DNA of 61,936 nt, filler included, from Vermamoeba vermiformis (Eukaryota): the NCBI GenBank assembly GCA_045837725.1. It is 5 parts of 5 records of this genome, joined end to end, with 100 filler letters (N's around TTAATTAATTAA, not from the genome) between each part and the next. Parts side by side here need not be neighbours in the genome. Positions count along the whole stretch, not along the records: positions 17,103 to 43,788 come from JBEWZL010000190.1; 4 more parts are not named here. One strand, 5' to 3'. Every line of letters begins with the position of its first letter. Positions within the stretch are counted from its first letter, which is position 1. Of this stretch, positions 17,210-58,457 are shown in pieces. Both the position numbers and the translations under genes were made by a program. Below the pieces are notes generated by a model. That model worked only from the letters and a program-made list of their open reading frames with translations, had not been told where the DNA came from and ran no database searches.

Positions 17210-17841
17210 ACTGAGAGCGTGACCAGCAGGTCACAGGGGGATGAGAGCGTGACCACCATAGACAGAAGCGTGACCAGCAGGTCACAGGGACCGAGAGCGT
17301 GACCAGCAGGTCACAGAGGGCCGAGAGTGTGACCAGCAGGTCACAGGGACTGAGAGCGTGACCAGCAGGTCACAGGGGCTGAGAGCGTGACCAACGGGTC
17401 ACAGAGGGCCGAGAGTGTGACCACCATAGACAGAAGCGTGACCAGCTGGTCATAGGGGGATGAGAGCGTGACCGCCATAGACAGAAGCGTGACCAGCAGG
17501 TCACAGGGGGATGAGAGCGTGACCACCATAGACAGAAGCGTGACCAGCAGGTCACAGGGACCGAGAGCGTAACCAGCAGGTCACAGAGGGCCGAGAGTGT
17601 GACCAGCTGGTCACAGGGACTGAGAGCGTGACCAGCAGGTCACAGGGACTGAGAGCGTGACCAGCAGGTCACAGGGGCTGAGAGCGTGACCAACGGGTCA
17701 CAGAGGGCCGAGAGTGTGACCACCATAGACAGAAGCGTGACCAGCAGGTCATAGGGGGATGAGAGCGTGACCGCCATAGACAGAAGCGTGACCAGCTGGT
17801 CACAGGGGCAGAGACAGAGGCGTGACTAGCAAGTCACAGGA
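17210..17841. repeat. GC-rich minisatellite of 21-30-nt units with palindromic core GTGACC-N4-GGTCAC and a ~270-300-bp higher-order period
   Basis: About 20 units of gagagcgtgaccagcaggtcacaggg, interleaved with gtgaccaccatagacagaagc. The block starting at 17243 recurs at 17513. Confidence 0.95.
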
Positions 17842-17860: not shown

Positions 17861-19601
17861 TCAGCAAAGCTTCATTTGGTCAGCGTGACGCTCAGCCATT
17901 CGACGGAATTTCTTGTTGAACTTGCGCTTTTTGCGAAGAACGGCAGACTCGGTCTTGGCATCTTGGTTGTCCCCAATCGGATTTAACCTATTTACCGTTA
18001 ATATTGCTCTACCGTGAAAATATTTTTCGACAACGTACCTCTTAAAGGCTGCATCCAGCGAGACAAATAGTACTGACTTTGGCACCGTAGTTACGGGGTC
18101 TGTTCCTGATAGCAAGCGTCGTTTCTTAGAGGGGTTTGCTATTTCGTCTTCGGCCTTCCTCTTGCCACCCATGAGGTTTGGCTGCAATACTGTAAGTCAC
18201 GGCACATCTTTTGTTCGCTGATAACTTACTACACTGAGCCACTCTTGCACTGGATTAAAACAATTTGGATCTGGTAACAAGTTTGGCTGTGTCGATTTCC
18301 AGTTGCTTGGAAGTGTATCGTTGACCCAAGGACACGTTGTATAACAAAGGCAGGGTTTAGTTCTGGCTAGCATACCAGCAACTTGCACCGGCTCAACACG
18401 GAAGCAGTGCACAGCCACGCCACGGTACGAGTCCCTTCGATGTACAAATAACAAGGCCTCTTTGAAGTCTTTCCAAGATGAGTCCATGAAGCGTTCGTAG
18501 TTGATGTCGTTGCCAATGAAATCAATCATTTGGGTCAACAGGGTAGTGCATACTTGCAGCAAGACTTTGCGATTCTTCGGTTCGGACAAGAATCGGAAGC
18601 TGTTAGCCCACGGCACCACTTCTACAAAATGCGGATTAATACTAATCCTAGTTGCTAATGTATTCGACGGCACCGGTGGCAAATGATTTGAAAGTCATTG
18701 TCACAGCCGGGCGGATCACTCAAACTAGAATTTGAAGTCTAGCTGGCGCGTCCGTCTTTGCCATGCACGATGAATTTTAAAGTTCAACGCGCACAACTAT
18801 AGGCCAACCAAGATCGATTGAAAGGTCGATCAGAGGCGAGATCGATTGACAGGTCGATCGAAAAATCAAGATCGATTTTAAAGTCGATCAGAATCAGAAT
18901 TTTAAAGTTCTGACGTGGAGGTTTAAAAGTCTCCTTCATCGTGCATAGTGAATTTTAAAGTTCACTTTGTTGGTACTTACTGAAGTGGTAATACAAACGT
19001 TGCAATACTTCGTTGACAACGCTTAAGCCAAAGCCATTGAACAGTGATTGGTTTAGCAGTGCTTCGAACAATGTACATTTCTGGAAGTATTCAGGAGTTG
19101 CGCACAGTCGCACCTCGAGGTTTGCCACAAAGGCACTCCTCTCGCTCAGTAGATCAGGACCCCACATCGGTTCCCAGGCAAGTTGTTTGCAGAACTGGAT
19201 CGCGGGTGGTCTGCTGTCCAAATAAGCAAACACAATGTCGCTATTATGAACGTGCAAGGCCCAGTATCTGTTCAATTTGCTGGATGTTGCATCTAACAGA
19301 GACGATTGCACCGTTTGAACAAATAGACCGCAGTAGGAAAGACGTATTTTCAAACAGTAGCCCCCGTCGAAAATTAGCGCCGCTTCTTTGCCTCGAGACC
19401 GTACCTATTTAATTAAATTAAATCAGTGATTATGCAGTGTAAAAATAATCGACTTATGCTTAGTAAACGCGCAGGTGCGAGCTTGTTAAATTCATCCAGC
19501 GCTGCACTGGCAAAATTCGTTGAAATTGAAGCGAAGGTATTGCCTACGAGGTTGCCATTGGCCCATTTCTCGAATAATTTGTAGATTAAAATTTCTGGCA
19601 T
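17861..19601 (-). pseudogene. NEIL1-like Fpg/Nei DNA glycosylase, copy 1, probably decaying
   Basis: MPE start, spliced VRSRGKEAALIF, WEPMWGPDLLSE and H2TH LFEALLNQSLFNGFG..VVNEVLQRL. The first intron donor reads ATAAGT, and no in-frame acceptor is visible after the repeat inserted in intron 2. Confidence 0.75.
18719..18945 (+). repeat. 227-bp inverted repeat, left copy (intronic, MITE-like, GATCGA-rich)
   Basis: Reverse complement of 20326-20552 with about four mismatches by eye. Internal 11-bp IR TGCACGATGAA/TTCATCGTGCA. Confidence 0.95.
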
Positions 19602-19966
19602 CTTAAAAAAAAAGGTTAGTTATTTATTTTAAGGTAATAATATAAAATGAGTTGTTTTTAATTTAAATAAAAATGTTCCGTACCCTGAATGGGCTCAGTT
19701 CGATCTAATCCGAAGATGAAGGCGTCATGACGTACTTAGCTAGTACTCCACGTTGAAAGGTGGTGTAAGTCACTTTTGTAAGAGTGACGACTCGTGTGGT
19801 GGTCACTTTTGTAAGAGTGACGAAAATAAAATTTGAATCGCGCGGGATTTTGTTTTTGAAATTTCCAGAACTAGCCAATCAGAGAGCGCCGAAACACCAA
19901 AATTTTTTTTGTTCTTAGTGCGAGCACTTACCACCTAACCTGAGCTGATTAACACACGGCTACCTC

Positions 19967-22900
19967 ATGCAAGCACGAAGACGATCTGGGCAAAAGCCTA
20001 CCGCGGTTGTGTAAGTTTTAATATTTAATTTTAATTTACGCGCAAACGCGTCATTATTATGTATTGTATACGTATTCTTATTAATAATTATTGGAATATT
20101 TCAATTATTAAAAGCAAGGATGGAATTTACAAGGATGATCGAAAATTATTAATTTATTTTCAAACCAAATTTCGAAGGGCTTATTATTAATTAAACCCCT
20201 CTTTGTTAGGAAATATTAACGGGCATATTTTTCCGGGGAAACTTTACAATTTCCTCGCGAAAAAATGTCCTAATCTGGAACGGATTTTATTCGAGTGCAC
20301 CAGCGAACTTTCCCATTCGTGTTAGTGCACGGTGAAGGAGACTTTTAAATCTCCACGTCAGAACTTTAAAATTCTGATTCTGATCGACTTTAAAATCGAT
20401 CTTGATTTTTTGATCGACCTGTCAATCGATCTCGCCTCTGATCGACCTTTCAATCGATCTTGGTTGGCCTATAGTTGTGCGCGTTGAACTTTAAAATTCA
20501 TCGTGCATGGCAAAGACGGACGCTCCAGCTAGACTTCAAATTCTAGTTTGAGCTGGACTTTAACATCCAGCGTGAGCAATTTATTAAGAGCTGAACGCTC
20601 AGTTTGCACTTGCCTCAAAGACTTACCAATCTTGGGCAAGCGTTAAAATCCGGTGCACTTTTGAAATGTCAAATGTGGATCAAGTGCACGTGCACTTGAC
20701 GGATCTTTTCCGTAAAATTAAGCCGTTGTGGCTTTTTGTATTCACATCCTTGACTTAATTACAAATTCGATCTTTCAATATCGAAATAGATGATTTTAAA
20801 CTCATCTATCCCGCAGACAACAAGATAAGAAGCTGATTGTAGCTACTTTCGCGGACATTTTCATCGTTGGGTACTCTCGGCCACCACCTGGTGGTTCCAA
20901 AGACAAATTCGTTGACGCTGTTATGCGCAGAATTAATTCGTACCCAATCAAATCCTCAAAGCACAACTTATTTTTGTTGTTGCTAGTGATGTTCGAGTAT
21001 CACGAGCTGCTGGAAAATGTCACAGATCCGCTTACTTTTCCGGTGAGTGATATTTAAATGCCGTATTAAGCAAGGCTAATCTTTATGAAACTAGGAATGG
21101 TTCAAGAAATACGGTGACGCATTTACGCACAAAACTGGTCATAAAAACACGGATCCCGGTTGGCGTTGCTTGCTTGAAACGCTTCGACAATTACCAGAGA
21201 ACTTACCCAAGTTATTAGAATTGATTCGAACGGAGGTTAGTATTATTTGGCTATGTTTGGCTATACGGACGCATTAATTACTTTCTCTTGCAGTTGATGC
21301 GTCTAAAACCCAAAGCAGCAAGCAGAGACCTTGAGCACCGCGTTTACCACAAATTGATCATTGCCCTTCGATATCAATGGTACTGCTTGCTTCCGTCTAA
21401 CTTCGACGCGTTTTGGAAGGCAACGCTTCGACATCAGGAGCACGTCGACTATACTGCGATCCCGTTTACGCTTCCTCCAGGAATTGCAGTAGACCCATCG
21501 CTAATCGCAGCAATGAATAGCGTGGTTCAAGCACCCACTGTACGCGGTACGTTGGAGGAATTCGCATTTGTTTTCATACCTAACTGTTCGCAGAGGGACC
21601 GGACCCATTCCGTGCACAGCGTGTAGCCCATCGGTTTATCAGTCAATTTAATATTGGAAAGGAGCCAATAGTAATTACGGCCGAGGTTGTTAACTTATGG
21701 AAGAGACGGTTGGATGAATCTACTCAAGCTACTTCAAACAACAACAACAACAACGTGCAGTCTTTCTTTCGCCAATCATAATACCCTTGCCAATGGTGGC
21801 TTGGAGCTGCTTGCGGAGAGTGGCCCATCAGATTTTCAAATTCCATCGGTCCGAGTCAACCTTGGCTCTGCGGATGTTTCGTTGATCAGCCAGCCTGGTA
21901 GCCCAGACCAGTGGCGTGGGGATGTACCTAATTCTCCAGACTTTCTGCAATCTCTTGACGACGTATCATTTCCGGAGTTCGAGGGATATTTTGCCGGCAG
22001 TCAGTCCCGAAAGCGCCCTTTGCTTGCAGTAAGTCCGCATTAATTGATCAGATCTCGAGCAAAATACTCACCGCTTGTAGCCTGAAGGACAAGGGCCTTC
22101 TGCTAAAAGACAAAAGATTATTGGCCGACCCAATGACGAGATGGAAACGGACAATTTGCAGCCGGTGGGTCAAAGGAGCACTGAACAGGCGTTCGAAGCT
22201 TCAACGCTTGTTACTGCAACAAACTCCTCAACACCGACAAGCAATGTGGACCCGACGAGCGCCGGTGCAAGTTCGAACACCAACACCAACAATGGTCGTA
22301 CTGCTGGCAATGACGCTAGAGCTATTACTGACCACAGAAGTCATCGCGATAGCAACAGTCGCAGTGACAGCAATAGTAGTAGCCGCAGTCGCAGTCGCGG
22401 CCCCAACAGTCGCGGCCCCAACAGTCACAACCGCAGTCGCAGCCGCAGCTACAGCAACAGTAGTAGTGGCAGCAATAGCAGCAGCAATAGCAGCAGCAGT
22501 AGTAGCAGCAGTAGCAGCAGCAGCCGCAGCAGCAGCCGCAGCTACAGCAGTAGCAGTAGCAGTAGCAGCAGCAGCAATGCTAGCAAGAAAAGCAGCCGCA
22601 GTGGAAGTAGCAAGAAGAGCAGTGGTGATAATCACGCTAACCTCGACTCGTCAACATCACTTGGTAACATGCTTGAAGACAACGCCAAAGATACTACCAA
22701 CACTCCATTGCCCTCAGTGTCGTCTACTAGTGCTGAGGACATCAGCAATCTTCCGTCTGCAACTACAATGCCAGAGACCAACCACGCAACAACTGGCCTA
22801 GTTAGTGCCCCGGGTTTTGCTGTTTCAAGTCCCGTAGCAATTGAACTAGATCATAATGACAGCGCTAGCCTTCAGCCGGTTCCAGAAACGTTTGTTCCCA

Positions 22901-24109: not shown

Positions 24110-24720
24110 ACTAACCTATCATTCTGATCATTCGAATTGCAGAATTTGAATCTTGCATGCAAATCGAATGAGTGAAGTTAGTTCCGTGATTACTGCTAAA
24201 CTAACCTGTAATTCGAATGAATGAGTATAGTTAATTTAAATATCAAGGCACTAACCAATCATTCTGCTCTCGCTCGAATAGTAAGAATTGCCTCAGCGGT
24301 AATTCGAATGCCTGCACTTAGTTTCGTAACTACCAATAAACTAACCTGCAATTCGCATGAATTAGTTTAGTTAATTTCAAATACAAGGCACTAACCGATC
24401 ATTCTGGCCATTCGGATGGTAAGAATTGGTCTTGCCGGTAATTCGAATGACTGGAGTTAGTTCCATGATTACCGCTAAACTAACCTGTAATTCGAATGAG
24501 TGCGTTAAGTTAATTTAATTATAATGCACTAACCAATATTTTTGCTCGTTCGCATGGAAAGAACTTGCCTCGTTGGTAATTCGAATGACTGGAGTCAGTT
24601 TCATGATTACTAATAAACTAGCCTACAATTCGCATGAATTAGTTTAGTTAATTTTAAACGTAAGTCACTAACCAATCGTGATACGAATTGAATTAATGTA
24701 CAGCATTCAATCCGGGCAAT
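24110..24720. repeat. Diverged ~139-bp tandem repeat, at least 4 copies
   Basis: An ACTAACC..T anchor recurs at about 24110, 24250, 24390, 24528 and 24667, with shared AATTCGAATG motifs. Confidence 0.85.
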
Positions 24721-26327: not shown

Positions 26328-29185
26328 TTACATCTTCTTTGACTTTTTGGCTTCCTTTTCATCTTCGGACTTCGGCTCCAACGCGAGAGATATCTTACGC
26401 TTCTCGCCAGTGTTCCGTTGGGCACTAGGAAACAGGTTGACTCGGAATATGGAGCCCCATCTCTTCTCTGATTCCTCGTCACTATCCGGAGGCGGAAAAG
26501 GGCCTTTGCGAGCAGGTTTTGGAGGTGGGCCGCTCTTGTTTGATGCCCGCGGCGTCTTCTTGGCAGTATTGCCGAGCAAATTCTGGGACTTCTTTGGCAG
26601 AGGTGGTTCGACTCTGACTTGTTCGTTGACAGAGCTCTTAGATGTACTAGTCGTTGGTTTGACGGGAGGAGCAGGAGCTCTGTCAAGCTTCACTTCAGGC
26701 AATACGAGCACTGGGTCTGTCGTTGGTTTGACGAGAGGAGCAGGAGTTCTGTCAAGCTTCACTTCAGGCAATACGGGCTCTGGGTCTTCTCGTACAGGAG
26801 AGAGCGGCAAAGTTTGACTCGGGATATGGAAGGACTCGTTGATATTAGTGGACTTGCTCATTACAGATCTGGAGTTTGACGAGGAGACCGATGGGCTAGG
26901 AGAGCACGACGAACTGGAGCTGCTCGACTCGGAAGACGACGAAGAGCTGACTTCGTCAGAATTACTTTCATCAGCTGAGCTGGACTCGAACTCCGAGGAT
27001 GGAGCTTCAAATGAAGACCAAGAAGCTTCTTCTTCATCGTTGTCGTCTTCTCCATCGTCTTCATCGTCTTCATCTTCTCCCTCTTCGTCTTCGTCGTCCT
27101 GCTCCGACGGTTCCTCCTTGTTGAGCGCGCTTTTAGACGACTTTGCTGCCGGGCTGCTGCTGCAGGATCTCCCTCCTACCGAAGACCAGTATGCAGAAAC
27201 CAAGTGCATGAAGGGGATCATTCTGTAGCCTGGAAAATCTTTGACCGAGCCATCCTTGAAGGCCACCGTGAACTCAACCTTCGAGCGAGAAACAAATCGG
27301 TGCTTGACAATTCGATCGATGCTCTCTGCGAAGTCGTCGTTCTTCTTCTCGTACTGCTTCTGAAACTTGTTGAGCATTTTTTCCATGGAGCCTGTTGGCA
27401 GCATACCGACAGTGTTATTGACGGTTTTCAACGTGTTTTGATTGACATCAGAGCGATGAACTCTGTCGTAGTGAGTGGAGAGCACATCGCTAGAGGTGTT
27501 TATCAACGCAGCGTGCTTTTCCGTGAAGAACTTGGCAATGCCCTCTTGATCGAGCTTCAAATGATGCTCGGTGAGGAACGTGACCAAAGCACGACGGAAG
27601 TAAGTGCATGAGATTGTTCTCCCAGGAAAGTAGGAGGCCACGATGCTTTGCACAAGATTTGACAAGCCTTGATATCCTAATGGACAGAAATTCGTTAGTT
27701 ATATTACTTAAACGCAGTGGGCGTGCTTACTCATTGCATTCCCGACTCTGTTAATCCAAACAGATTCGACGCCCTTGTTCGCAACTATTGGCAGATAGCT
27801 CTCGATCCATACTCGCAAAGGAATAGAGAACGAGTTGGGAAGAACGAAGAAGTCCGTCTTAGCGCGCTTGACTTTTTCACGAGGTGGAAAAAACTTTGCA
27901 TCTCCTCCTTCGAAGACGACGTTCTAATACTTAAATAAGTAATTGATCGATAATGATAAAGAATAATTTAAACTTACTTGCTTCGTCAGCGAAGCACCAA
28001 ACTGACGTCTTTGTCCACCTAAGTGCATCAGAGTCAGCAGGTACAAATGACCCATGAACAGGGTCATTTCGTCTCTGGAAAGTTTTGACTCGCGTGCTTC
28101 TCCGTAGATGAATGCGCTATCTCGTTCGATCATTTGCGTGATCTTGTCGCACACAGACTCGTTGAGTTGACGTAGCTCAGTTTGGTCCAACCACTCACCG
28201 AGTAGCATCAGAGTTTCGGCAACAGTTTTGTTGGCGTTAGACTTGGCTATGTCTTTTGCTTCTGTTAAGACAATGTTAATTTCAGGTTGAAAAATTGAAA
28301 CTGAAGCTTACTCGCCGCAGGTATTTTCAAGATATCATTCACAGCGTCGATACGGGCACGATAGTTAGCAAAACTTTCCAATCCCTGTATTGACGTTATA
28401 GTTAGACAGGTATGGATATACCGACTAAGACTTACGTGCAAGTACTTCAAGAACATACGAATGATCTTGATCACATTGGCAATTGTCGCTGGCTTTTTCC
28501 CCGTTGACTCATACCAACAAGGGAAAGCAGTGGCAACTCTAGTGTCGAGCAAGTGCCGAACGTCAACGATTTTTGGCTGAATGACATCTGCGACGAATCT
28601 GAAGTAGATGGCCAGTGCAGATCTGGTCTCGCCACCCCTGTCTGAGCCACTATTGCTCAGGAGACCCTGCTTGACCTTGGTCTGGTCCTCAGTAGAGCCG
28701 TGAAGCCGAGTCAGCCTTTTGCGCTCGATGTATTTTTCGAATAAAGAACCAACGCAAAAGTACTTCACAGATACCTTTTCGAGAGGAAATCCCTGAAGCC
28801 TTTTTGGCGCACCAGTTTGATCGTTACCTAGTAAGAATAATAGATTGATTAGATAATGATCTGTCAAAGTTATTGACTGTTAACTTACGCGTTAACGAAG
28901 GGAAAACTCGTTCTTCAAGGTCATCAGGCACGTCGTCCATGTCGCAAACGATTGGAGCGTCAGTGAACTGAGCCAATGCGAGCTTCGCCTTGGCTATCTC
29001 TCTTTCCAATTTTTTAACTTCTACTGCAAGTGATTAGAATTGAAGCTATATTCCAATTAGCTAACCGACTAAATGAACTTACCTTTAGAAGAAGGCGACG
29101 AGTTTCGTTTTATTTTTTTTTCTTTCTAAAACAATATTGCGTTAATTACGATATTGAAAGTAAGACGTTTGTTTACCTTCTCCAT
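26328..29185 (-). CDS. Intron-containing tyrosine recombinase with a chromodomain-like module and a low-complexity tail
   Basis: Spliced product has core-binding helix KKPATIANVIKIIRMFLKYL, box I LMHLGGQRRQ, Lys in REKVKR, box II TYFRR...AALINTS..VL..HY, then IDRIVKHR...VEFTVAFKDG...LVSAYW. Confidence 0.82.
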
Positions 29186-29357
29186 GTAGAAAAACGATAA
29201 ATGGATTAAGAAGTAAACCGATTGTATTCCAAAATTGCGCACGTGATCATCTAGCGAGATGATTGGTCAGACGTGCACGTGAGCTAATTGGTGGAAAACT
29301 GACTTACGCACAAAAAAGGTAAGTATACGTCCGTGATTGAATTGTGATTTTCAGACA

Positions 29358-29768
29358 ATGCAACCAATACTTACAACAATGGCAGAACCGAAACAAGATG
29401 ACTGGTCCGACTTCACGGAGGAAGAATGCATTATGATCGACGACTTGCTAAGAATAGCGCGAGAAGATAATATTGCAACCAACCCGTATTATTCGCAGGA
29501 TGAAGAAGCAACCCAAAAAGTTGATGATTATGACGAAACTGAATACGTGACGCACCCGGAGCCAGTTGAACCTGGTTTCGATTTTATTCATTTATTAGAA
29601 GAAAACGACGAATGTTCTAGCCCTGCTTCATCCACTGATGATGAAGTACTTACGCAAAGGCCAAGTATTAAGCGAGTCCGAGAAATGGCCCGATTGTTTG
29701 GCCTAACAATGCCTGATAATGAAGACTCGAAATCCCTACCCGGAGAAACTAATGTTAATTCGAAATGA
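29358..29768 (+). CDS. Small acidic hypothetical protein divergent from the YR gene
   Basis: Open Asp/Glu-rich ORF with an apparent 5'UTR intron (gtaagt...tttcag) just before the ATG. Confidence 0.55.
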   Translation: MQPILTTMAEPKQDDWSDFTEEECIMIDDLLRIAREDNIATNPYYSQDEEATQKVDDYDETEYVTHPEPVEPGFDFIHLLEENDECSSPASSTDDEVLTQRPSIKRVREMARLFGLTMPDNEDSKSLPGETNVNSK

Positions 29769-29834: not shown

Positions 29835-31054
29835 ATGGAAAGGTATGTATTAATAAGCAATTCGAATTGTCTAACTATTAACGAAGAAAATACCTGTGCC
29901 ATTGTTCTGATAAGCACGGTCATTTCTATGTACATACCGATGATTTTTCGGAGCAGTGGCTTGGAAAGGGAGGCGTTGCTGGCTTGTTGGGCATGAGCAA
30001 AAACTCGTTCTGCTCAAAGTTGTCTTTGTACGCTCCAAACGCTCCCATCGGAACTTATCCGTTCAATAACGTCGTCTTGGAGCATTCAAAAGAGCTTGGC
30101 GCCACAAGACCAACTGTGTTTTACACTCTCGAACAAGCCAATGCAATCATCAAGCAATGGTTGACGAGACCAGGCGGGAAAAAGAGTTGGCCGATTAGAC
30201 TTTCAAGTGCTCGTGCATTTCTCGCCAGCCTGGACAGAATATCGTTAGTTGAGATTAAAGACGGTAACAATAGCTACTTTAAAATAGAACGTACTGAGAA
30301 GCAGGGTGATAAGATTGCTGCAATTCAATACGTTCATGAAACTAACAACAAAGCCGCAGCAAGACAAGAAAATAATAGTGAACCAAGCTTGTCGCCTGAT
30401 TCGAAAGAGGTGTTACTTACGCTTATGGATATGTACCAAGAGAGCAATCCGGAAGAAGCCGATATTCCGGTCGAAGAGAAGCAATTTCAAAAGAGAACTG
30501 ACGAAGAACCTGCCCGAGAGCTGCACGTGCATGAACCCAAGCCAAATAACAATGCACAAGTGCAATTGGAGGGCCAAAATCAAAAACAAGCGTATACTTC
30601 GGAGCAAAGTTGTCCCGAGATAATTGACGTTGATTCCTACGAGCCGCCAGAGAAAGGCAAGCTATACAATTGTTAAATTACGATAGAATAACATATATTA
30701 GTGTGGCAACAAACCTCGCTCGAATCTCTAATGTCCGCCAAATCGAAGAGAAAAGCTTCAGCAAGTGATAGCAAGACGAGCAAGCGAAGAAAGGAACTTG
30801 AGCCTGTCTTTGATTTTTCGGCGCTTTCAAAACCTTTCAAGGCACCTCGGAAAATCTCCGCCGCACCAACGCCCGAAGAGGAAACCAAAGAACCAACACA
30901 AAGCGAAGCTGAGCCCGAAAGCGTCAAGCCTAACACTGAAACGTTAACGAACAATGATACCGTGACGCAAGCTCAAACTCCACAAGATTCAGTCGAATCA
31001 ATTTACAAAAAATTAGCTAAAAATTTCCCAGACGACGATGAAGATTTTCAATAA
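29835..31054 (+). CDS. Multi-exon hypothetical protein with a possible N-terminal HTH-like DNA-binding domain and a disordered tail
   Basis: Spliced MERKYLCHCSDKHGHFYVHTDDFSEQWLGKGGVAGLLGMSKNSFCSKL; NLS-like KSKRK and KRRKE. Confidence 0.6.
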
Positions 31055-31189: not shown

Positions 31190-31924
31190 ATGGAAGAGAA
31201 GCTAAGATTTACCGAAGCGCTTGCACTGCTGTAAGTATCGCCAATTAATTAATCGACGCTGACAAACTTCGTAGTCGAGAGGGGCCTGTTAAAACAATAA
31301 CGTAAGAAATTTGCGATTTTATAATATACTATTAATTATGCTAACAATCGTAGTGCGGAAAAGGTGCTTCGAGATGAAGAAATTGGAGTATATTTTATTA
31401 AAAGCGCTTACGAGACTTACCTTTCCTTACCCCTCGTAGTTTTAATGTTACCAAAGGCCCACATCTATCAATTTAGCAACTTGATAGAGATATTGCAGCC
31501 CTTGTTCAAAGGTAACAAGATTTCGAGTCTTCGGTGCTTCACGTTAAGCGACGTTCATAAAATGCTATCGCTTTATTGCCGCCAGGTAATATCTCCTGTA
31601 CAACGTAATACAGTTACTAACATTGGTTAGAATGGACCTGAGTCGCTATCAACTTTGAAAAAATTGAAAAATTTAATTAGGGAATATAACCTTGATGGCG
31701 AGATTTTTAGTTGTTTAGATCCCTCGTACCATCGCTTAATTGGCGCTTACCCTGAGTACTACAGCGACTACTTGTCTTATGGTTGGCTTCCTGGCTCTTT
31801 GGAAGCCGAACTAGGTCTTGCAAGCAAGGGTGCTGACGAGGCAAGCGTGAAAGAAGACGGTTCCGTTGAAGAAAATGAGGAGTCTAAAGAAGGAACCGTA
31901 AATAACCCGATATTATTGGACTAA
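31190..31924 (+). CDS. Multi-exon hypothetical protein
   Basis: Four exons with canonical splice sites join in frame: MEEKLRFTEALALL...GVYFIKSAYETYLSLPLV... Confidence 0.55.
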
Positions 31925-31956
31925 AATAAAAACTTTCTTACTTTGATCCGGATCGA

Positions 31957-33770
31957 TCAGATCGAAACGGGTAGCTTTTGTTTAATTTTACAAAATTTGT
32001 GGAAGTGCTTCTTGCGCTTCCGCTTAATTCTATTGATCCTAGAGTTATTATTAGAACTCGACGGACTCAGCTGGAGCACGGTCGTTGAAGGATCCATCGA
32101 TCCGACATCTGCTTGGTTCTCTTGACGCTGATCTAACCTAAATAAATGGCTTCAGTAAAATTACTACAAAAATAGCTACTACTAGCTAACACTTACTCTA
32201 CGCTATGTACTTCGCTAGCAGACTTTGTTGAACTTTCGATCTCATTGCCGAGATCTTCCGCAAGCCACTCAACTCCGTCAAAGCAACGCTCCACGAAGAT
32301 TGGCTTTTTTGGCTTTGCATTAGCCTCCTTCAATTTTTTTTTAGGAGATTCGTTAGGATCCGAATCTGCCTTTCGTTTTTGTCGCTCCAACTGGGTTTGC
32401 TTTGACGCCAATTCCTTTTTGGCTGCCGTAGTACGCATTATTACGCTCTATAAAGAATTATTTAATTTTAAATGAGGCAAATAAGAAACAAACTTACGGT
32501 TGGATCGGCTAGATGCAGCTTTACCCGAGCAGTTGCCGAGTACCAGTGGTACATGCCCACGTTAAGACTATTCTCGGTCATTTTAGTTGTCGTAGATCGT
32601 TGCCAGCCGGGTGGAAGTGTAACTAATGATTTAGAAGGGCTATCGCCAGGCACGTCTGAATCCGATCCAGATCCAGGCTTAGATGATAGCTCTTGGTCAG
32701 ACAAGGCATTATCATCATCGACTGCGAAGCAGCAAGTCGTGTAGCACTTGTTCCTGCCTTTAGTATAACAGTGAACCTGCGCATAAATATTAGACTGGGC
32801 CGTTTATAATTACGTTAACTTTTTACCTTGTTTTTACCGCTCTTATTCTTGCGAAACACAAGCAAAAACAAGTTTGAAAAATCCAGCCACTCTTGTTCCA
32901 AGTAACGAGAGCAATCAAAGTCGGTACCAATATAATCGAGAATCTGTCGAACAAATTCCGAAGTGAACACGCGCAAAGCCTTCACGTTGCATTGCTTCGA
33001 AAGAAATGCTAGTGCGTTTGTAGTAGGCGGTACTCCTATATTAAATAAATTATTATTACAATTAAAAAATAATTGAGTAGTAGTTTTTAAAAAAAACAAA
33101 TAAAAAAGGGTAACTAACCATAATGCAAGTACAATCGCTCCAGTGTCTCGTTTATAGTGTATGCACCAAGTCCATTAAACAGTGCTTGATCGTGCATAAC
33201 TTCGAACAAGCTCTTATCAAAAGCTTTGGGCCTTGCCGCTAGCTCCCTTTCCAAATGCTCGGTCCAAGTAGTCGCTTCGGACACCAAGTCAGGACTTCGT
33301 GTAGGATCCCATTGAAGGGACGAGCTGAACGCTATGGTAACGAAGTTCGGAAATTGGGCAGCTTCGACGATGAACAGGCAATTGTTCAGGTCCTTGGAGC
33401 GAAGGACAAAATTAACGTGCTCGTTGAAAGGGTAGCTCTTTACGGCAAGCAGTGGCTTCACGACAAAGTAGCCACCGAGTGCGAGATGCACACGGAGACA
33501 AGAGCCATCCTCGAATATCAGGGCAAGCTCCTTTCCCCGCGCAGTTGCCTAAAAATAACACGTTAACATTAAAAACACAAAATTTACGACAGCACTTACG
33601 GAGACTAGCTTTTTGCTGCATTTCTTATTAAATTCTTCGACGACTTCAGGCTGATTCGGATCTTTAGTCAGTGCGTAGTCTCTGCACTTGATCAATTTGT
33701 CGAATTCGATGCCGCGAAGTCTTTCAGTAAGCCAAAGAGCGAATAGTTTGTATTCGGGTAATTCAGGCAT
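31957..33770 (-). CDS. NEIL1-like Fpg/Nei DNA glycosylase/AP lyase, copy 2, apparently intact
   Basis: MPELPE start (catalytic Pro2/Glu3), spliced ATARGKELALIF..HLALGGYF, WDPTRSPDLVSE and KAFDKSLFEVMHDQALFNGLGAYTINETLERL..GVPP. These match the NEIL1 pattern KAFDRPICEALLDQRFFNGIGNY. Confidence 0.88.
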
Positions 33771-34508: not shown

Positions 34509-37500
34509 ATGCACAAGTCTACAACGTACCTAGAGCTGCCGCTGCCTAAAAAGTAAGTCCTTGTTCGGCGCAGATGCCGATCAACTTTTAAACATTGCGG
34601 TGGTGCTTCCACCGAAATAATACTTAGAAAATTACATTTAAATATTTTAAATAAGAAATAATTAAGCCGAAAATTACCCGAAGTAATTTAAAAAATCTCA
34701 GTGACACTGAGATTCATTTCTGATCGAATAAATTTAGTGTTCCTTCGGATCCCCGTGCAGTGGAACTGCACGTAGCACGTTACGTAGATTTTTTTATGCA
34801 AACGAAAGGAGTTTCCCTTCCAAACAAAGTGAAGAGCGGCTTCGTGCAATCGATCACGCAGCATTTCTCTTCGTATGGGGAGGAATATCGCAATAATAGC
34901 ATGCTGCTATTCGTACTAACGTACTATGGTTAGTAAATTCTAAATTAATAACTTTTGAATGTCTTTAAATTGACAAATTAATTAGCTTACAACGGATTCA
35001 TATTCGTGTCCGAGAACAACCACTTTCAGCAACGTTATCCCTTATGGTTCGAGGCATACAAAGCGGTGCTGACAAAGAAGCTATTTCTCAACGCAAGAAA
35101 CGGCACGGAATGGACATACGTTACCGAGGTGTTTCGTCGCTTTCCTGACGCGCTAGACACGTTCGTCACCTGGGCTACCGATTGGCATCGAGAGAACGTA
35201 CAAGAGTATGCAAATCTCGACGATAAAGAGCGAAGGAAGCGCGTATACTACCAAGTGTTTTGCGCAATGCAATATCACGTCAAGTTTTGCTTATGCAAGG
35301 CGAACTTCTACGCTTTGCTAGATAGCACAAAAGGCATGGACTTCGCGGAGTACACTACTCCGTTCTTTTCAAAAACAGCTCTTGTTGACGAAAACAAAAT
35401 ACGTAAGTATCAGTTCAAGTAAATTTGTAAACTAACTCTAGAAATAGAGCGCTACGTTCCACCACAGGGAGAACACGGTTATGGCAAAGGCGATCCTTTC
35501 GCTCCGTTTGGTAAGTTATAAGATTACTTTATTGCTCTTAAAAAATACCGATAAATTCTTGACAAGCTAACCTAAATAATGGATAGTTATAAACGAAAAT
35601 AACCGACAAATTGCCGAGTATTTCACGAAGGATCCCTTTGACGCCGAATCGTGGAATTCCAAAAAACGAAAGTTAGTAAGTGCAAAACGGAGTTTAACGA
35701 AGAGTTGACTTGCTAACTATACGACAGGACAAGGTATCGGGAAACTTAGACAAGCAGAACAACATTCCTCCCGCTCTTAGAAATGCACCGATACTTGGCC
35801 CAGCTTTCCCGTATGCAATTGTTCGGCCGGCCAAGAGCTCGGAAACTGTTCCGCTCTATGAACGTGCGCGTATCCAGGCAATCAGCAAAGGGCAGCTAGT
35901 TGCTAGTCCTTCTGATACAGCTGAAGACACGTCAGTCGGGATGGAGATAGAGAACACAAACAACGAGCACAGAACTCCTTACGAACAGGCGTCGGTGAAT
36001 TTCTCACCGTATGTACCACCTCCTTATCTTCCACCACCGTACGTTCCACAAGCGTACGTCCCGCCATCGTACCCGCCACAATACGGTGCACTATACGCAC
36101 CATACAATTACTATGTACCTCCAGCGTATTGGCCTGGTCAGGGACCGTATTCATTGCCTATCCAACTGTATAACCAATACGCTGGATACAATACCGTGTA
36201 CGATCAGAATCAAGCCAGAGCGAGATATAAACAACCTTCTGATAGTGTCAATCCTGGCATCATTACGATAAATAACTCTGAAAAGTCGCAAAAATCCCTT
36301 ACTGTAGCAGCGCCGCAGACAGTTGATCGCTCAGAGAGCACTCAAGTACCGCCCGTAGCTAATACAGTACCGCGCTCCACAGCTTCGTCGAGTTCAATTG
36401 CGATAGCCGCGACGCAGACAGTTGATCGGTCACAAAATAGTCAAGTACCGCTCGTAGCTAATTCAGTCCCGTGCTCCACAGCTTCGTCAAGTTCAATTAC
36501 GATAGAAGCGCCACAGACTATAATTGATCGTCCCGTAGCTAATACAGTACCGCGCTCCACAGATCCGTCGAATTCAGATACTACACCAGCGCCGCAGACC
36601 ATAGTAGATCGACCAGAGAACACTCAAGTACCGCCCGTAGCTAATACAGTCCCGTGCTCCACAGCTTCGTCGAACTCAGATACCACAGCAGCAGCGCAGA
36701 CCAAAATTGATAGTCAAGCACCGCCTCTAGCTAAATCTGTCCCTTCTTCGAGGGTAGAGACCCCTACGGCAGGAGGCAAGGACGAAAGTACAGCTAAACC
36801 CATCGAAACCAAACCGAAATCTGAAGTTAGCGGTTACTTCTCTTTTCCCTCTGTGTTACCTCCGATAACGGTATCAAGCGCACGCAGCGCTTCGGTCGCA
36901 AACACAATTTCTCTTGCCAAGTTCAGTGAATTACCCAAACCGATGCGTGACAACACAGTTTTTCGGGTAACTTTAGAAAAACTACCACACGACGCTAGTA
37001 CTTCAGTCATTGACGCAAGTACTCACAGTAGCCGTACGTAGCCCATATTAGTATAAAATTTAGGTCTAACTATTTTTAGTGGGCGCCATGGCAGTTATTC
37101 CAAAAGAGCTACTCGACGTGATTTTCTCGTATCTAGTTGCGTATGTCAGTTCAATACGCAGCTTGATGGACACGTGCAAGGAGCTACTCTTCAATGGCAT
37201 CAACTACTTACTGTCGGTCCCCCCGTTACAAATTTGGCTCTCAAACGACACAAAACACGTACAACGAATGCTAACCGCGTTCGATATCCCACATAAGTGT
37301 CTTCAAGTCATGAAGTGGGATTTTGAACTGTTGCAAAAGTTGAGCCTAGTTGCAGTGGCAAGGCGCAAGTCCCAGCATCATGATATATTTCTCAAGAGGT
37401 AACCATCGTAAAGTCATCTTTATAACAAGCTAATCTTTAATAACCCAGGAATTGGAATCTGGCAACACGTGCGTCTGTCGTTGTGTTAGATCTCAGAGTT

Positions 37501-41111: not shown

Positions 41112-41271
41112 TGAAGCGTGTGATTTCTGTAACGAATTGCGAATATCGTTGGAACGATATTGCGCATCGTTAGGGAAATGTCCCTTTCGATAGCATAAAT
41201 AGCGCTGTAACTATCACAATAAACGTCTTCTTATCCTACTCCTTGTCTTACAATCATTTCATTTGGTTCCG
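41112..41271 (+). promoter_or_regulatory. 3' part of a 5' LTR (left boundary uncertain) and primer-binding site
   Basis: CATAAATA at ~41194, AATAAA at ~41218, LTR-like end CA at 41260-41261, then TT and TGGTTCCG, which is complementary to a tRNA 3' end (Glu-like). Confidence 0.6.
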
Positions 41272-41287
41272 AACATACCGGTCAACA

Positions 41288-42307
41288 ATGGAGCGAGATC
41301 TCGTCTCTCCGTTCAAGAAACTGTCACACGTGCCTATTTATAAGGAGCGGGAGGATATGAATATTGACTCTGCTAAAGTCAATAGTTTCATTGCTGCCGT
41401 TGATCCGATTCCTGATCCTGACACGCAACGTCAACAATGCTTTGAATGGTTCACCAACCTAGCTCTCACCGTTCAAATCTTCAGTCTCAACTCTGCCGAG
41501 CTTCTACGTGCTCTGATGACTCGATTGGCTTCTCACAAGCACCACATCCAAAAGTGTCTCAATGTTGACGATCCGCACAAAATTCTCGAGAATCTTTCTG
41601 CAAGCATTCTCAGAGTTAAGGCCTACGCTAGTCTCGATGAAATCCTCAATTTTAGAATGACTTTTAACGAAACTGTTGAAAGTTATTTTAATCGAGCGGT
41701 GGAACTTACAACCCGCTCAGATCTTAAAAGCGAATCTCAACAACTCGATCTGATCCTCAAAGGTTTGCCCAACGACTGGAAAGCTCAAATGGTCACGTTT
41801 CCCGAAGCCAAGAATGTAGAAGAACTCTACCAGCAACTCATTCAACTCGAAGATCGTCGCAGAAAGTTATTCCGACCTAAATCCGGATCTGAACAGAGAA
41901 ATGTCAAACGAACGCCAGAAAAATCCAAAAATTCTGGTAAGCAACAAAACGGTTCCAATTCTACGGCCAATATCACCTGCTTTGCTTGTGGTGGTAAAGG
42001 TCATTATTCGTACGAGTGCAACGTTGCATCTGACACTGCACGCGAAACTTTGCCCTTCGATCCTCGCAACGTCACAGTTCGCAAGAAAGATTATCGTCCC
42101 TCGCCATCAGCCCCTTCTCAGCCCCAGAAGAGTTCAACTCCGTCAGATACGTCTCGCTATGTTGCTCGCTCGCCCTACAAACCACCTGGTCAACGCCCAC
42201 ACGACATCGCCGAAGTCCACGAGATGAATTATGCTCCTCAACATGTCCAATCAGCCCCTAACAACAACAACGTGAGATCTGTGCCTGGATCTCGTCCGGA
42301 AAACTAG
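41288..42307 (+). CDS. gag: Ty3/gypsy Gag
   Basis: ETVESYFNR..EL capsid-like motif, ILKGLP and CCHC knuckle CFACGGKGHYSYEC. Confidence 0.88.
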   Translation: MERDLVSPFKKLSHVPIYKEREDMNIDSAKVNSFIAAVDPIPDPDTQRQQCFEWFTNLALTVQIFSLNSAELLRALMTRLASHKHHIQKCLNVDDPHKILENLSASILRVKAYASLDEILNFRMTFNETVESYFNRAVELTTRSDLKSESQQLDLILKGLPNDWKAQMVTFPEAKNVEELYQQLIQLEDRRRKLFRPKSGSEQRNVKRTPEKSKNSGKQQNGSNSTANITCFACGGKGHYSYECNVASDTARETLPFDPRNVTVRKKDYRPSPSAPSQPQKSSTPSDTSRYVARSPYKPPGQRPHDIAEVHEMNYAPQHVQSAPNNNNVRSVPGSRPEN

Positions 42308-43788
42308 AACGCGACAAGAGTCAAGGCTCAACTGTTGTCGCGCAGTTATTAGAGCCTATGGATAAGAACAATGCGACCGACCACAACAACAAACCCGACA
42401 AGCTAAGCCACATGTATCCGTCTCGAAATTAATGACCCTGCAGTGGATGCATTGGTTGACTCAGGAGCGTCTTTCTCTTTAGTGTGAGTCCCGATGTCTA
42501 CAATGCCCTACCCAACAAACCACCCCTCCAACCTCGATTCGCTTGCTTGGGAGCGCTCAACGATACGCCGATCCCGAACATTGGTGAAATTTATGGATCA
42601 GTACGTATTAATTTGGTCACCTGGATAATACCAATTATTATCGAACCCCATGTATGCGCTCGCAATTTATTCTAAACAAAGATGTTCCTCAGAAAATATC
42701 AAGCGTTACTAAGATCAAGACAACAATCAACTGGAAACACTTCTGGCTGACCCCAAGCACTCGCCCGTTACTCAAGAACGACAATTCATGAATATTCCGC
42801 CAGTCAGCTCCAAATTCATCAAAAGCTCTATTTGGACGAAGAATTAGTTTTGGATCCGCGCCATTTCCGAATCACTTATCAACTTCCAAACATTCATTGG
42901 CTCATTCTCTGGCATAGTAAAACCAAACAGACGTATGCCTTCCAGACGCCTCTTCAAAGCTTCAGTTGGTCGTACTCTTAGTGCTGTCCGCAACGGAGTA
43001 ATGTACGTTCAATTTCTAAATATGGAATATCACGCCGTTACTATTCCTGCTGGTACTTTAATTGGACACTTTGTGCCCTACGATGACATCATCCTTCAAC
43101 ACCATCAAGGTCAAATCGCTTCTGTCGACAATGCTCAAGTCCCTGCCGCTCAGAAAGAAGAATTCTTCAAGAAATTGGATCACTCGTTCCGAAAGTCCAA
43201 GATCAACACTGTTCAGTCACTCGCTCTTAAAGAAGTCTTGTTTCACTACCGTGATTTATTTGCCGACAATGACGAAGGAATGACAAATGTGTCAAACGTC
43301 AAATGTCACATCAATTTGACAGATCCGAATTCTCAGCCAGTTCAAGAACGACTCCGACGCACAACGCCACAACAGAAAGCCGTAATTGATGAAGAGATAG
43401 ATTATATGCTTAAGAACAACGTAATAGAACCGTCTGAATCGCCATGGGCCGCGCCTGTCCATCTCGTCAAAAAGAAGAACGGAACATTTCGCTTTTGTAT
43501 CGACTTTAGAGGGCTCAACGCCCTTACCAAGAAGGACGCCTATCCCCTGCCACGTATCGACGACACCCTGGATTCACTCGCAGGCATGGTTTACTTCACT
43601 ACACTGGATGCACGAAAAGGCTATTGGCAAATCCTCATGAACGTCAACGACCGCGAGAAAACAGCTTTTGTATCACACAGAGGCTTGTTTCAATTCAAAC
43701 GAATGCCTTTTGGTTTAACGAACGCACCAGCAACATTTCAGCGAATGATGGATCTCGTACTTAGCGGTTTGCTCTATGAAATATGCTT
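42308..43788 (+). pseudogene. pol: Ty3/gypsy Pol (protease and RT); frameshifts and stops in the protease region, cut by the contig end
   Basis: ALVDSGASFS, SPWAAPVHLVKKK.GTFRFCIDFRGLN, YPLPRIDD, LDARKGYWQI and MPFGLTNAPATFQR. Confidence 0.92.
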
Positions 43789-43888
43789 NNNNNNNNNNNN
43801 NNNNNNNNNNNNNNNNNNNNNNNNNNNNNNNNTTAATTAATTAANNNNNNNNNNNNNNNNNNNNNNNNNNNNNNNNNNNNNNNNNNNN
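43789..43888. other. Artificial contig linker
   Basis: N run with TTAATTAATTAA. Confidence 0.98.
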
Positions 43889-47900: not shown

Positions 47901-50900
47901 TTGCAAACGGCAGTTAGAAATAAAAATTTGCCACGCTCTTTTAAAGCTTTTGCGATGGAGGAGGCACACAATATTGGTATCATAAGCATCGGAACAGGGC
48001 GCTGGAGGTGTGAAGTATGCAATGCAGAGTTCAATGACCGTTCCAAGAAAGCCCATCCGTTTACGACCAAATGCTTGCAAGTTACTGTGTCAAAATGTTA
48101 GTATGTGTAGTAAATATATGATTATTGATTAGTAAATTAGATCGAGAGAGATTGCTCAACACTGAGGAGCAATATGATGAAGATGAGTTTGAAACCGAAT
48201 TACTTAATTATGCCGATCTCCGTAAAATTAACCGAAAAGCCACAAAGGATGATGAATGGTATACTTTTACGTTGGACATCAACAACAACTCAAGAACATG
48301 GTCTTCAAAACTGTTTGACAAGCATAGCAAGACTTGGTAATTCAATTTCGTTAAAATATACAAATAAGGTAAATTTAAACTTGTACTATATTAGGCAATT
48401 TGAGGCAAATTTAAGCCGAAACAGAACGAACTTGCACTTAGTGTTGCTCCCGATAAGCAACGATCAGGAGCTCTCGTTGAAAACAAGGATCATCGTCAAC
48501 AACGGGTAAGTTGGAAAAATTTATGACACTTTTGACACAAGTTAAAAATAGACACGAAAAAATTGAATTCAAGAAGATGGATACCAGCAAAGAGCCTTGG
48601 TTAACGTACGAGCTTCCTTTGGAAGCAAAGTTCATAAAATTTTCTTTCGAGGTAATTTCAACGCACAACATCTTAAGACAAGAACCAGTCACGTAAGCAG
48701 TTTATATATATATACAATTGAATTGATAATTGATTTGTACGACAGCGAAAAGAAAGAATCAAAATACGACAAGATGTTTCGTGAAAAGTACAACAATCCC
48801 GCGACGCGATTGGTTCATGACTTTGTCAATCGATGGGAAGGCAACACTTTCACAAGTACGGCGAATCGAACAATTAACAACCTTATAAAATATATGTTTA
48901 GGAGATTGCACCGATGAATTTCTTCAGCTCATCCAAGTCAAAGTGGTTAAAGAAATGGAGGTCCCTGTGACGAGCCACCTCCTTCAAAAAACGTCTGATT
49001 TTTTCTATAACAAGTTACCTAAGGATGTGTTGAAAGTTGAGAGTGAAGGAAGAGTGTACGATCTGCGCTTCAACACGATCCAAGGCATCATCGATCACGT
49101 GATTAGCTCACCAATTTATACAAAAGGTAAAATATGTAATTGTTTGGCTTATGACTAATTACCTTATAAGATTGGGTACGCAAATCAGATATGAGCCAGG
49201 TTGACCATCCGTGCAGTCGCAAAGCGTGGACAAAATACGAGAAAGCACATGAAGATCGGCTTGCGAGCGGTCACGAACTGTTATTGCCTATAATTTGGAC
49301 AGATAAGTACAGTGCTCAACAATCAAGAAAGAAGAGTTTTTGCAGTGTATTACTCACGTTCGCCAACTTGTCGAAGGAAGTACGTGCCACATCTGCGTTC
49401 GTCCAATTTTTTTTACGTCTCCTGTATTTAGGTGTTAATGACTCAAAACTCCCGATTTCTAATCTGTACTATACCTCCACACCTCATGGACCAAAAGGAT
49501 TATATTCTGGACAAGATCGTTGTGGACTACATGTCCGAGCTCGAAGAGGGATCTCTTCCGAAAATGAAGTTTCACTTCCTCGATAAACCAGTGCCTGTCT
49601 GTGGTGGTCTCTACGCAATAAAGGGAGACCATATAGAGAAGACTCAGATGGCTGGTATAGTTGGACCAGGAGGAGACGTGCCTTCCTTTTACACAAGAAC
49701 GCCTAAGGAAAATATTAGCGACGTCGAACGGAAGAGAACCTTTCGAACCAAAAGTCATAGTAAGTTACAAACCTACTCTTTATATACTTACACCTTCTAA
49801 GCTATGGCTGTGTTCGAGACTTTTGAAATGCAAGACACTGCCAAGGAGATCAAGACAACGACGCAAGTCACTGGAGTCAAGAAAACTATCGTAAAGTCAT
49901 ATTGCCTGTATTATAAGTTATTAATATTTGTATTTATAGTCTCCGTTCTGGAGACTGAAAATTTTCTCGGAAGATTTCTACATGCGGTTTGCAATTTGTC
50001 CGCTTCACTTACTTCACCTCGGGTTGATCAAGCGCTATGTCGACCAGATCGGAATTGCCATGGGAAAGCCCTATCGGGACAGTACGTTCAAATTTTTGAT
50101 TGTAATGGCTATCCTGATTGATTGTAACAGCGATCAACGAACGAGCATCGGAACTCCCTCCGTCAAAAGAAATGACACGTATTACAATGCCTGTGTTCAA
50201 GAAGAAGAGTTAAGCACGTCTTTGATTCATATATTATACTTACGAATCGTTTGTAGAGGATACTACGAACCCACTGACGGGTAGAATGTGGTCTACATTC
50301 ACTAAAGTGTCCACCTCCGTGAACGCTGATCTTCTCGACGAAGATTTGCTTCAGCGATGGTCGTTCATCATGGAAGGAATGCAAGCTATTGATGAGACAA
50401 AGTGGCGACTCGATCAACTAAGTCAAGGTGGTGAGCTTGATACACTATGCAAAGATATCCTTACCAATATACTGGTACGTACGAAAACAATCATCGAATG
50501 GTACGTACTTAACAGGTAACAGCGGTCATTTGATGGCTTTGAAGAACAGCCTGACTGGAACATTCCAAACTTCGAGACCATGTACGCTCTGGCCAAGTCT
50601 GTCAAATTTCTTGGTCCTTTGTGGTTCCAATCAACCGATCTTGAGGAAGGAACGAACAAATTTTATCGTAGCTGCATCCGCGTGTCGAACCAGATCAATG
50701 CCCACAACCACATGCTGAAGATGGTATCGATTCATTTCTATAGATCAATATTAACGTTAGTTACTGTAGGTTGATCGTAAAAGGTCACTAGAGATGGTTA
50801 AATTTGACTCGAAGGAAGATCAAGAAAAGTACGATCAAATTAAACATCGTGATATCCATATAAAGGCAGAGAGGTAATTTTAATAATAAATATATATTCT

Positions 50901-53763: not shown

Positions 53764-53863
53764 NNNNNNNNNNNNNNNNNNNNNNNNNNNNNNNNNNNNN
53801 NNNNNNNTTAATTAATTAANNNNNNNNNNNNNNNNNNNNNNNNNNNNNNNNNNNNNNNNNNNN
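53764..53863. other. Artificial contig linker
   Basis: N run with TTAATTAATTAA. Confidence 0.98.
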
Positions 53864-58357: not shown

Positions 58358-58457
58358 NNNNNNNNNNNNNNNNNNNNNNNNNNNNNNNNNNNNNNNNNNN
58401 NTTAATTAATTAANNNNNNNNNNNNNNNNNNNNNNNNNNNNNNNNNNNNNNNNNNNN
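58358..58457. other. Artificial contig linker
   Basis: N run with TTAATTAATTAA. Confidence 0.98.

Follow-up and report, generated by a model that had tools for sequence, protein, structure and literature searches.

A NEIL1-like gene of a divergent clade, carried by a tyrosine-recombinase element and expressed as spliced RNA

A NEIL1-type Fpg/Nei gene, here called gene A, is a real, expressed and spliced gene that sits within a tyrosine-recombinase element. Phylogenetic trees place it in an undescribed divergent NEIL1-like clade, sister to NEIL1. The window, the whole stretch of DNA analysed (61,936 nt), includes contig C190 in its entirety (17103-43788), from the 43.3 Mb, 309-contig assembly of an intron-rich eukaryote labelled Vermamoeba vermiformis. 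The reading we prefer, and to which we give about an even chance, is that gene A serves the element as an expressed accessory gene, with a product that would work chiefly as an AP lyase and clear element DNA of abasic or oxidised sites.

Capture of TET genes by transposons is known, and the step after oxidation was assumed to be the host's. Here two NEIL1-type lineages occur on mobile elements of one genome, together with TET transposons and signs of CpG methylation, and gene A is a concrete, testable instance of element-encoded base excision. It hints at mobile elements equipped with tools of their own for editing bases that are damaged or marked. A literature search that covered few subscription papers and in part only portions of texts brought up no report of a NEIL or Fpg gene on a transposon.

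Gene A and the element around it

Gene A occupies 33770-31957 on the minus strand and is single-copy in the assembly. Its six exons form a CDS of 1521 nt encoding 506 amino acids with 0 internal stops, and its five introns are all GT-AG and 50-83 nt long; intron 1 (51 nt) contains an in-frame stop. Transcript support comes from one RNA run, X1, an independent sample. This run is a root metatranscriptome available as contigs, and 11/18 compared records were at least 99% alike. Introns 2-5 (4/5 coding introns) are spliced out in X1 with exact CT..AC joints, the exon 2/3 joint lying at 33034/33118, and no joint for intron 1 is among those listed for the run. Coding differences between X1 and gene A are synonymous in 3/4 cases. 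Raw-read RNA runs X13-X15, picked by species label, yielded nothing beyond partial matches of low complexity. The KRKRKK stretch in exon 6 (32025-32008) is likely a nuclear signal.

The sequence-only reading had called the gene element-borne, and synteny with related recombinase elements bears this out (Table 1). The neighbouring recombinase resembles Tyr-recombinase clusters of the Atlas (0.94 and 0.93, with 132 and 116 of 256 features shared) and its R..K..YxRR..Y motifs can be read by eye; Pfam and PHROG returned no match. Four relatives of the recombinase, at 60-64%, occur in the genome. Related elements with conserved gene order are dispersed on C183, C123, C117 and C228, and the genes flanking gene A keep the same order on C117 and C228. 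A recombinase gene and dispersed copies of this kind are two marks of Crypton-like elements. Between these flanking genes a clade HMM found no NEIL-like sequence. Because both related elements that span the site (2/2) are without it, gene A is optional cargo.

The same absence makes an essential role unlikely for the processing of recombination intermediates that the sequence-only reading had proposed. Gene A and the recombinase gene are 2.6 kb apart and run X1 contains transcripts of both, as would suit a helper that processes excision or integration intermediates. Relatives of gene A adjoin other element types, however, and tyrosine recombinases rejoin their own ends, so we hold a helper role to be extremely unlikely.

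A 138-bp tandem array is probably the left end of the recombinase element, judging from the arrays of its relatives. Neither a right end nor an empty site turned up, and contigs are interrupted at repeats. TTAGGG arrays stand at the ends of several contigs examined.

Table 1. Features of the window and of related elements; coordinates are window positions unless a locus is named.
Feature	Coordinates	Strand	Remarks
Spliced tyrosine recombinase gene	26328..29400	-	5' limit provisional; 6 RNA joints (run X1)
Conserved element ORF left of gene A	29882..30676	+	Homologues at same position on C183, C123, C117, C228
Small element ORF immediately left of gene A	31655..31924	+	C228 homologue, E 3e-7
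Conserved element gene right of gene A	34724..35422	+	Homologues on C117 and C228, 42-49% identity
138-bp tandem array	24164..24677	.	Relatives have arrays at same position
Gene A exon 1	33600..33770	-	aa 1-57; Met1-Pro2-Glu3, helix A
Gene A exon 2	33119..33548	-	Lys63 RGK, LALGG loop, EAAQF loop, H2TH with GLGAYTINE
Gene A exon 3	32827..33035	-	H2TH domain end, remodelled lesion-capping loop, LxVFR helix (by alignment); RNA joints both sides
Gene A exon 4	32498..32776	-	Zincless-finger hairpin 32776-32732, acidic linker, clade motif; RNA joints
Gene A exon 5	32197..32447	-	Basic low-complexity tail
Gene A exon 6	31957..32137	-	C-terminal basic stretch and stop
Gene A MPE	33770-33762	-
Gene A RGK	33539-33531	-
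Gene A LALGG	33485-33471	-
Gene A GAY	within 33173-33159	-
Gene A VHC...CYTTC	32776-32732	-
Gene A clade motif ending NVGMYHW	32563-32543	-	Exon 4; common to metagenomic relatives
3' UTR intron of gene A	31884..31941	-	Joint 31883/31942; X1 contig also covers exon 6
Gene B, second NEIL1-like copy	17861..19602	-	Pro2/Glu3/Lys kept
Minisatellite just downstream of gene B	17213..17808	.
227-nt inverted repeat, 98%	arms 18719-18945 and 20326-20552	.	One arm in gene B intron 2
N-run spacers around TTAATTAATTAA	17015-17102, 43789-43888, 53764-53863, 58358-58457		Assembly filler; order of flanking contigs unverified
TIR transposon with NEIL1	L038:1743-8820 (C112); also C66, C70, C119, C173, C234		Copies ~99% identical

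Minus-strand joints of run X1 cross the ORF at 29882-30676, and spliced minus-strand RNA at 30043-30715 is antisense to this conserved plus-strand ORF. The 3' end of the gene A transcript overlaps the plus-strand ORF at 31655-31924. After the recombinase, window positions 27117-27300 look chromodomain-like by eye and have no Pfam match. An LTR retrotransposon interrupted by the contig end, with Gag zinc knuckle and reverse transcriptase, lies at 41174-43788, and a weak Plavaka transposase match (E 0.022) lies at 48141-50284, on a contig other than C190. Contigs with related recombinases (L047 on C228, L048 on C16, L049 on C231) start or end in TTAGGG/CCCTAA arrays, and C228 has telomeric-type arrays at both ends in the same orientation; the element may insert into telomeric repeats.

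Fold, active site and predicted activity

Pro2, Glu3 and the RGK lysine, noted earlier as retained, are present in the spliced 506-aa frame as MPE and Lys63. Assignment to NEIL1-type Fpg/Nei proteins was likewise upheld. Exon 2 matched human NEIL1 chains at E 2e-6 and scored 48.5 bits against marsupial NEIL1, the maximum of 200 shuffles being 32.0; exon 1 matched Pfam Fapy_DNA_glyco at E 0.099, under the cut-off. The fold was assigned through models of two relatives standing in for gene A: P0024, a full-length metagenomic relative (23% identical), and L027, a Pro-less genomic paralogue with a read-through intron (27% identical). The P0024 model (pLDDT 90.5) best matched human NEIL1 4NRV (Z 23.6, rmsd 2.5, 258 aligned), and its best 12 structural matches were Fpg/Nei in 12/12. 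The L027 model (pLDDT 86.2) matched NEIL1 with Z 17.7, rmsd 2.4 and 208 aligned, and NEIL1 ranked first for both. These proxy models support an Fpg/Nei fold for gene A, with beta-sandwich, H2TH and finger, nearest to NEIL1. Pfam gave 0 matches to P0024, P0015, P0006 and L027, so that the clade escapes Pfam. Neil1-DNA_bind (PF09292) had no match in the genome, in a search that missed host NEIL1 as well and in which no control gave a match.

Human NEIL1 (PDB 4NRV, 5ITR and the 6LW series) would share with gene A the two-domain fold and zincless finger, and both have the WxPxRxP...KAFD...DQxxFNG stretch and a basic disordered tail. In a residue map referred to marsupial NEIL1, numbered as the human landmarks, alignment gives gene A equivalents of the human residues Pro2, Glu3, Lys54 (= Lys63), Gly83, Phe120 (= Phe123) and Glu181. 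It differs at Met81 (Leu81), Arg118 (Ala121), Asn176 (Ala) and Arg179 (Ile), at Arg277 (Asn by alignment), and in the loop near residues 240-250. The void-filling triad is thus Leu81, Ala121 and Phe123, against Met/Leu81, Arg118 and Phe120 in NEIL1. The H2TH stretch reads GAYTINE against GNYLRAE, with Gly, Tyr and Glu retained. Gene A differs further from human NEIL1 in its extra C-terminal motif, its separate clade, its place on an element and the multi-copy nature of its clade.

LALGG does stand in place of FGMSG, but it is weak evidence for the shifted specificity drawn from it: Gly83 is kept, and host NEIL1 reads HGLVG and DVQKMG, with Leu, Gln and Met at the void-filling positions. According to the available part of bioRxiv 10.1101/2020.02.28.970129, Met and Leu are both normal at the first of these positions, and mimivirus Nei1 has Leu (L84) at the NEIL1 Met81 position. 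LALGG alone shows no new specificity because host NEIL1 and mimivirus Nei1 also have Leu. The change from GNY to GAY was confirmed in the H2TH region, but it is clade-wide and not peculiar to gene A.

Mimivirus Nei1 (PDB 3A42) resembles gene A also in fold (Z 19.3, P0024 model) and in residing on a non-host replicon. Canonical relatives in the residue table, unlike gene A, keep GM(S/T)G, RRF and GNY, and the spliceosomal introns of gene A set it apart from mimivirus Nei1 and from viral or bacterial NEIL1-like proteins. Both NEIL2 (Z 10.7) and NEIL3 (Z 17.1) scored below NEIL1 against the P0024 model. Like gene A they have lost the arginine that contacts the orphaned base, and NEIL2 too is without void-filling residues (bioRxiv 10.1101/2020.02.28.970129, in the part available). 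Compared with these two enzymes, the beta7-beta8 loop of gene A is longer rather than shorter, and the zinc finger is absent.

The VHC...CYTTC stretch, taken earlier for a new segment, corresponds to the ordinary zincless-finger hairpin. It aligns with both predicted hairpin strands of P0024 (272-277 and 283-288) and of L027 (226-231 and 237-242), and falls within the model range that superposes on human NEIL1. We discarded a zinc site in this stretch for want of conserved ligands: the His and last Cys vary among paralogues, and its Cys are absent from the wider clade.

By register in two alignments, NEIL1 finger Arg277 corresponds to Asn279 of gene A, with Arg278 one residue earlier. The register is ambiguous, as Arg278 follows Gly277 near the hairpin tip in the manner of the NEIL1 Gly-Arg, and the finger arginine is probably lost. 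Alignment also indicates that the lesion-capping loop near residues 240-250 was rebuilt, a feature absent from the sequence-only reading. Human NEIL1 R277A has lowered glycosylase activity and fully kept lyase activity, according to the accessible portion of PMC12499884. Lyase retention in R277A and loss of the Arg118 equivalent therefore favour, we infer, an AP-lyase-biased enzyme. With the Arg118 and Asn176 equivalents lost, the finger arginine probably lost and the capping loop rebuilt, a product acting mainly as an AP lyase is the likeliest outcome. After removal of Met1, Pro2 would attack C1' of the everted nucleotide with the assistance of Glu3 and Lys63, and beta,delta-elimination would nick the strand; glycosylase activity on oxidised pyrimidines would be weak or re-tuned. 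Ordinary damage could produce the abasic or oxidised sites, as could the turnover of methylated cytosine by TET/TDG. The lyase bias may not hold across the clade, as the Arg277 position is Lys or Arg in 7/10 full-length metagenomic relatives.

The divergent clade and its copies in the genome

A separate canonical NEIL1, which the sequence-only reading had suggested looking for, is present among ordinary genes on C258; it is intron-rich and carries GNYLRAE and GRTI. The host also has an Fpg gene on C294, presumably of plant/fungal type. Two quick trees, midpoint-rooted and without outgroup, separated canonical NEIL1 from the divergent clade with gene A (SH-aLRT 100). Forcing gene A together with host NEIL1 was rejected by the AU test (p 3.2e-7). 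By these comparisons gene A is not the host NEIL1 orthologue; with the Fpg/Nei fold present in the proxy models, the sequence-only reading stands on both counts. The gene immediately downstream of host NEIL1 (L067, C258:31500-34800) encodes a uracil-DNA glycosylase whose N-terminal extension is long.

A protein-library search gave 37 matches, and the 10 looked up were all without names. The clade was found in several metagenomes; a profile search yielded only 5 proteins, and metagenome scans matched 2 contigs with A3 and none with P0002. Word-indexed homologue searches for longer forms returned nothing, which is weak evidence. The C-terminal motif W..K/G..T...GVG..W is common to gene A and its metagenomic relatives and is confidently modelled in P0024. 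The Atlas clusters nearest to P0024 by language-model features (0.95) are unannotated hypothetical proteins of basidiomycetes, a lead only. Viral contigs scanned for exon 2, P0024 and the recombinase exon contained no relative of any of them, and a viral origin of gene A is unsupported. Even without an epigenetic link, the clade adds to the Fpg/Nei proteins a hitherto undescribed branch whose recognition loops are rebuilt, with an extra C-terminal motif and with natural Pro-less forms that show dN/dS below 1, and it would help reveal the residues that set NEIL substrate choice.

At least 16 divergent-clade loci occur in the genome, many of them degenerate or fragmentary, and a minisatellite lies downstream of most degenerate copies. 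Pro2-Glu3 is kept in gene A and gene B; all other readable starts (12/12) have Leu or Ala at position 2, and two copies on C258 are 5'-truncated. The 8 Pro-less copies in the residue table have Lys54 changed or missing, or read so, with Arg in the C86 group and Ser/Ile/Gln/Glu in C78, C130, C117 and C264. Loss of Pro2 in these 12/12 paralogues suggests that catalysis is dispensable for much of the family.

Such copies could point to a protein that binds lesions or modified bases uncut and so shields them from host repair or redirects it, the catalytic residues of gene A being leftovers. The altered Lys54 and the preserved fold of the Pro-less L027 (pLDDT 86) suit this proposal, as do exon-2 dN/dS values of 0.30, 0.56, 0.14 and 0.21 in four pairs, although two of the pairs are near dS saturation and the remaining two have small counts. 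MPE is nevertheless kept in gene A and in most of the full-length metagenomic relatives, and we consider a non-cutting role quite improbable. The degenerate copies, with the defective splice donor of gene B, would also fit a captured duplicate that is decaying as a neutral passenger. That account is very unlikely: the clade is deep and occurs across several metagenomes, gene A remains intact and its RNA is spliced, and the paralogue pairs tested have dN/dS below 1.

Gene B shares contig C190 with gene A. Its first intron is without a canonical donor, and the clade C-terminal motif was not found in it. The 1380 nt between the arms of the inverted repeat hold its 5' half (promoter region and first two exons), an arrangement suggestive of a switch turned on or off by inversion, with the tyrosine recombinase 6 kb away. 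A MITE family was rejected as the source of the repeat, the genome having only the 2 arms.

Several copies have distinctive neighbours. Degenerate copies at L045:3934-7169, L030:6964-9811 and L026:1337-4598 share a divergently oriented module of unknown genes that includes an LRR-like protein, and the C78 copy adjoins a Plavaka/CACTA-like ORF (by eye; no Pfam match). SET-domain, GATA-like and histone-fold ORFs adjoin NEIL-like copies on C258 (L025:3738-6779), and a histone-fold, H3-looking ORF adjoins the C264 copy (L097:3554-3841). The neighbours on C258 and C264 suggest chromatin-related cargo. A telomeric location for a C258 copy was dropped, CCCTAA-like letters also occurring inside the second C258 copy.

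A second capture and the methylation context

Six near-identical intronless NEIL1-like genes each stand at the end of a 7-kb element with ~30-nt terminal inverted repeats, the gene ending ~40 nt from the right repeat. The element encodes a DUF7869 protein (E 5e-39). In the tree these NEIL1s stand with the canonical side, on a long branch, suggesting that a NEIL1 was captured a second time, independently.

TET/JBP matches number 15 in the genome, 1 of them above the Pfam cut-off, and the HxD...H...R pattern is complete in 6/7 aligned TET frames. Transposase-like ORFs beside four TETs are of DUF7869, piggyBac or RAG1 type in 4/4, one below the cut-off; two frames beside a fifth TET matched no Pfam family. 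In DUF7869 elements the cargo is TET at one locus and NEIL1 elsewhere. C5-methyltransferase matches were found on 4 contigs. CpG is the most transition-prone context in 7/7 repeat pairs, at 1.25 to ~6.6x CpA, a comparison without a non-repeat control. The genome also has a gene that we take, from its motifs, to be TDG/MUG-like.

This setting raises an anti-silencing role, in which the clade, adapted either to oxidised 5mC (5caC, 5fC, 5hmU) or to taking over from TDG, would complete in trans a demethylation begun by transposon-encoded TET enzymes. The TET transposons, methyltransferases, TDG-like gene and CpG transitions are in keeping with it, and the P0024 clusters lead to basidiomycetes, a group known for TET transposons (PMC12730594, in the part available). 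Human NEIL1 cut 5caC, not 5hmC and barely 5fC, and stimulated TDG, but another group saw no NEIL1 excision of 5fC or 5caC (both as related in the consulted part of PMC5566547). On the other side, the window contains no TET gene, and TET and NEIL-like neighbours occur only as decayed nested pieces on C76. The gene A element is not CpG-depleted (CpG o/e 1.07-1.18), the DUF7869-NEIL1 element alone being so (0.40), and host TDG-like and NEIL1 genes could already finish the pathway. We consider this role unlikely as an account of gene A, for which a part in demethylation is plausible and unproven. Circumstantial support exists for a link to cytosine marks through oxidised 5mC or abasic sites, not 5mC itself. 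Direct excision of 5mC, which the sequence-only reading had entertained, is unlikely and without support, human NEIL1 not cutting even 5hmC in the same portion of PMC5566547.

A broader scheme, equally tentative and on balance improbable, is a demethylation kit distributed over mobile elements, probably shared with basidiomycetes: some elements would carry TET, others re-tuned NEIL1-like enzymes that remove oxidised 5mC or the abasic products of TDG, and dead copies would serve as binders. If true, it would be a transposon-encoded base-excision arm of anti-silencing. DEMETER/ROS1 enzymes use bifunctional glycosylase/lyase chemistry in a demethylation setting, and these 5mC glycosylases have the HhH-GPD fold, unrelated to the Fpg/Nei fold predicted for gene A. 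Iyer and colleagues reportedly described TET/JBP-carrying DNA transposons in 2014 (Iyer et al. 2014), which may bear on novelty. Fungal TET/JBP transposons offer a close parallel, in that several unrelated transposon lineages have captured a DNA-modifying enzyme; the cargo here is instead a base-excision enzyme, and NEIL, Fpg and H2TH go unmentioned in the available portion of the main text (PMC12730594). If this organism is not a fungus, TET transposons extend beyond the fungal lineages covered in that portion of PMC12730594.

The TET/JBP loci L086, L087, L088, L089, L090 and L093, with others, adjoin RAG1/Transib-like, piggyBac-like and DUF7869 transposases. The TDG-like pair showed no sign of being element cargo; its members belong to a segmental duplication (91%) shared by C253 and C281 (L110:1-7078, L111:1-6848).
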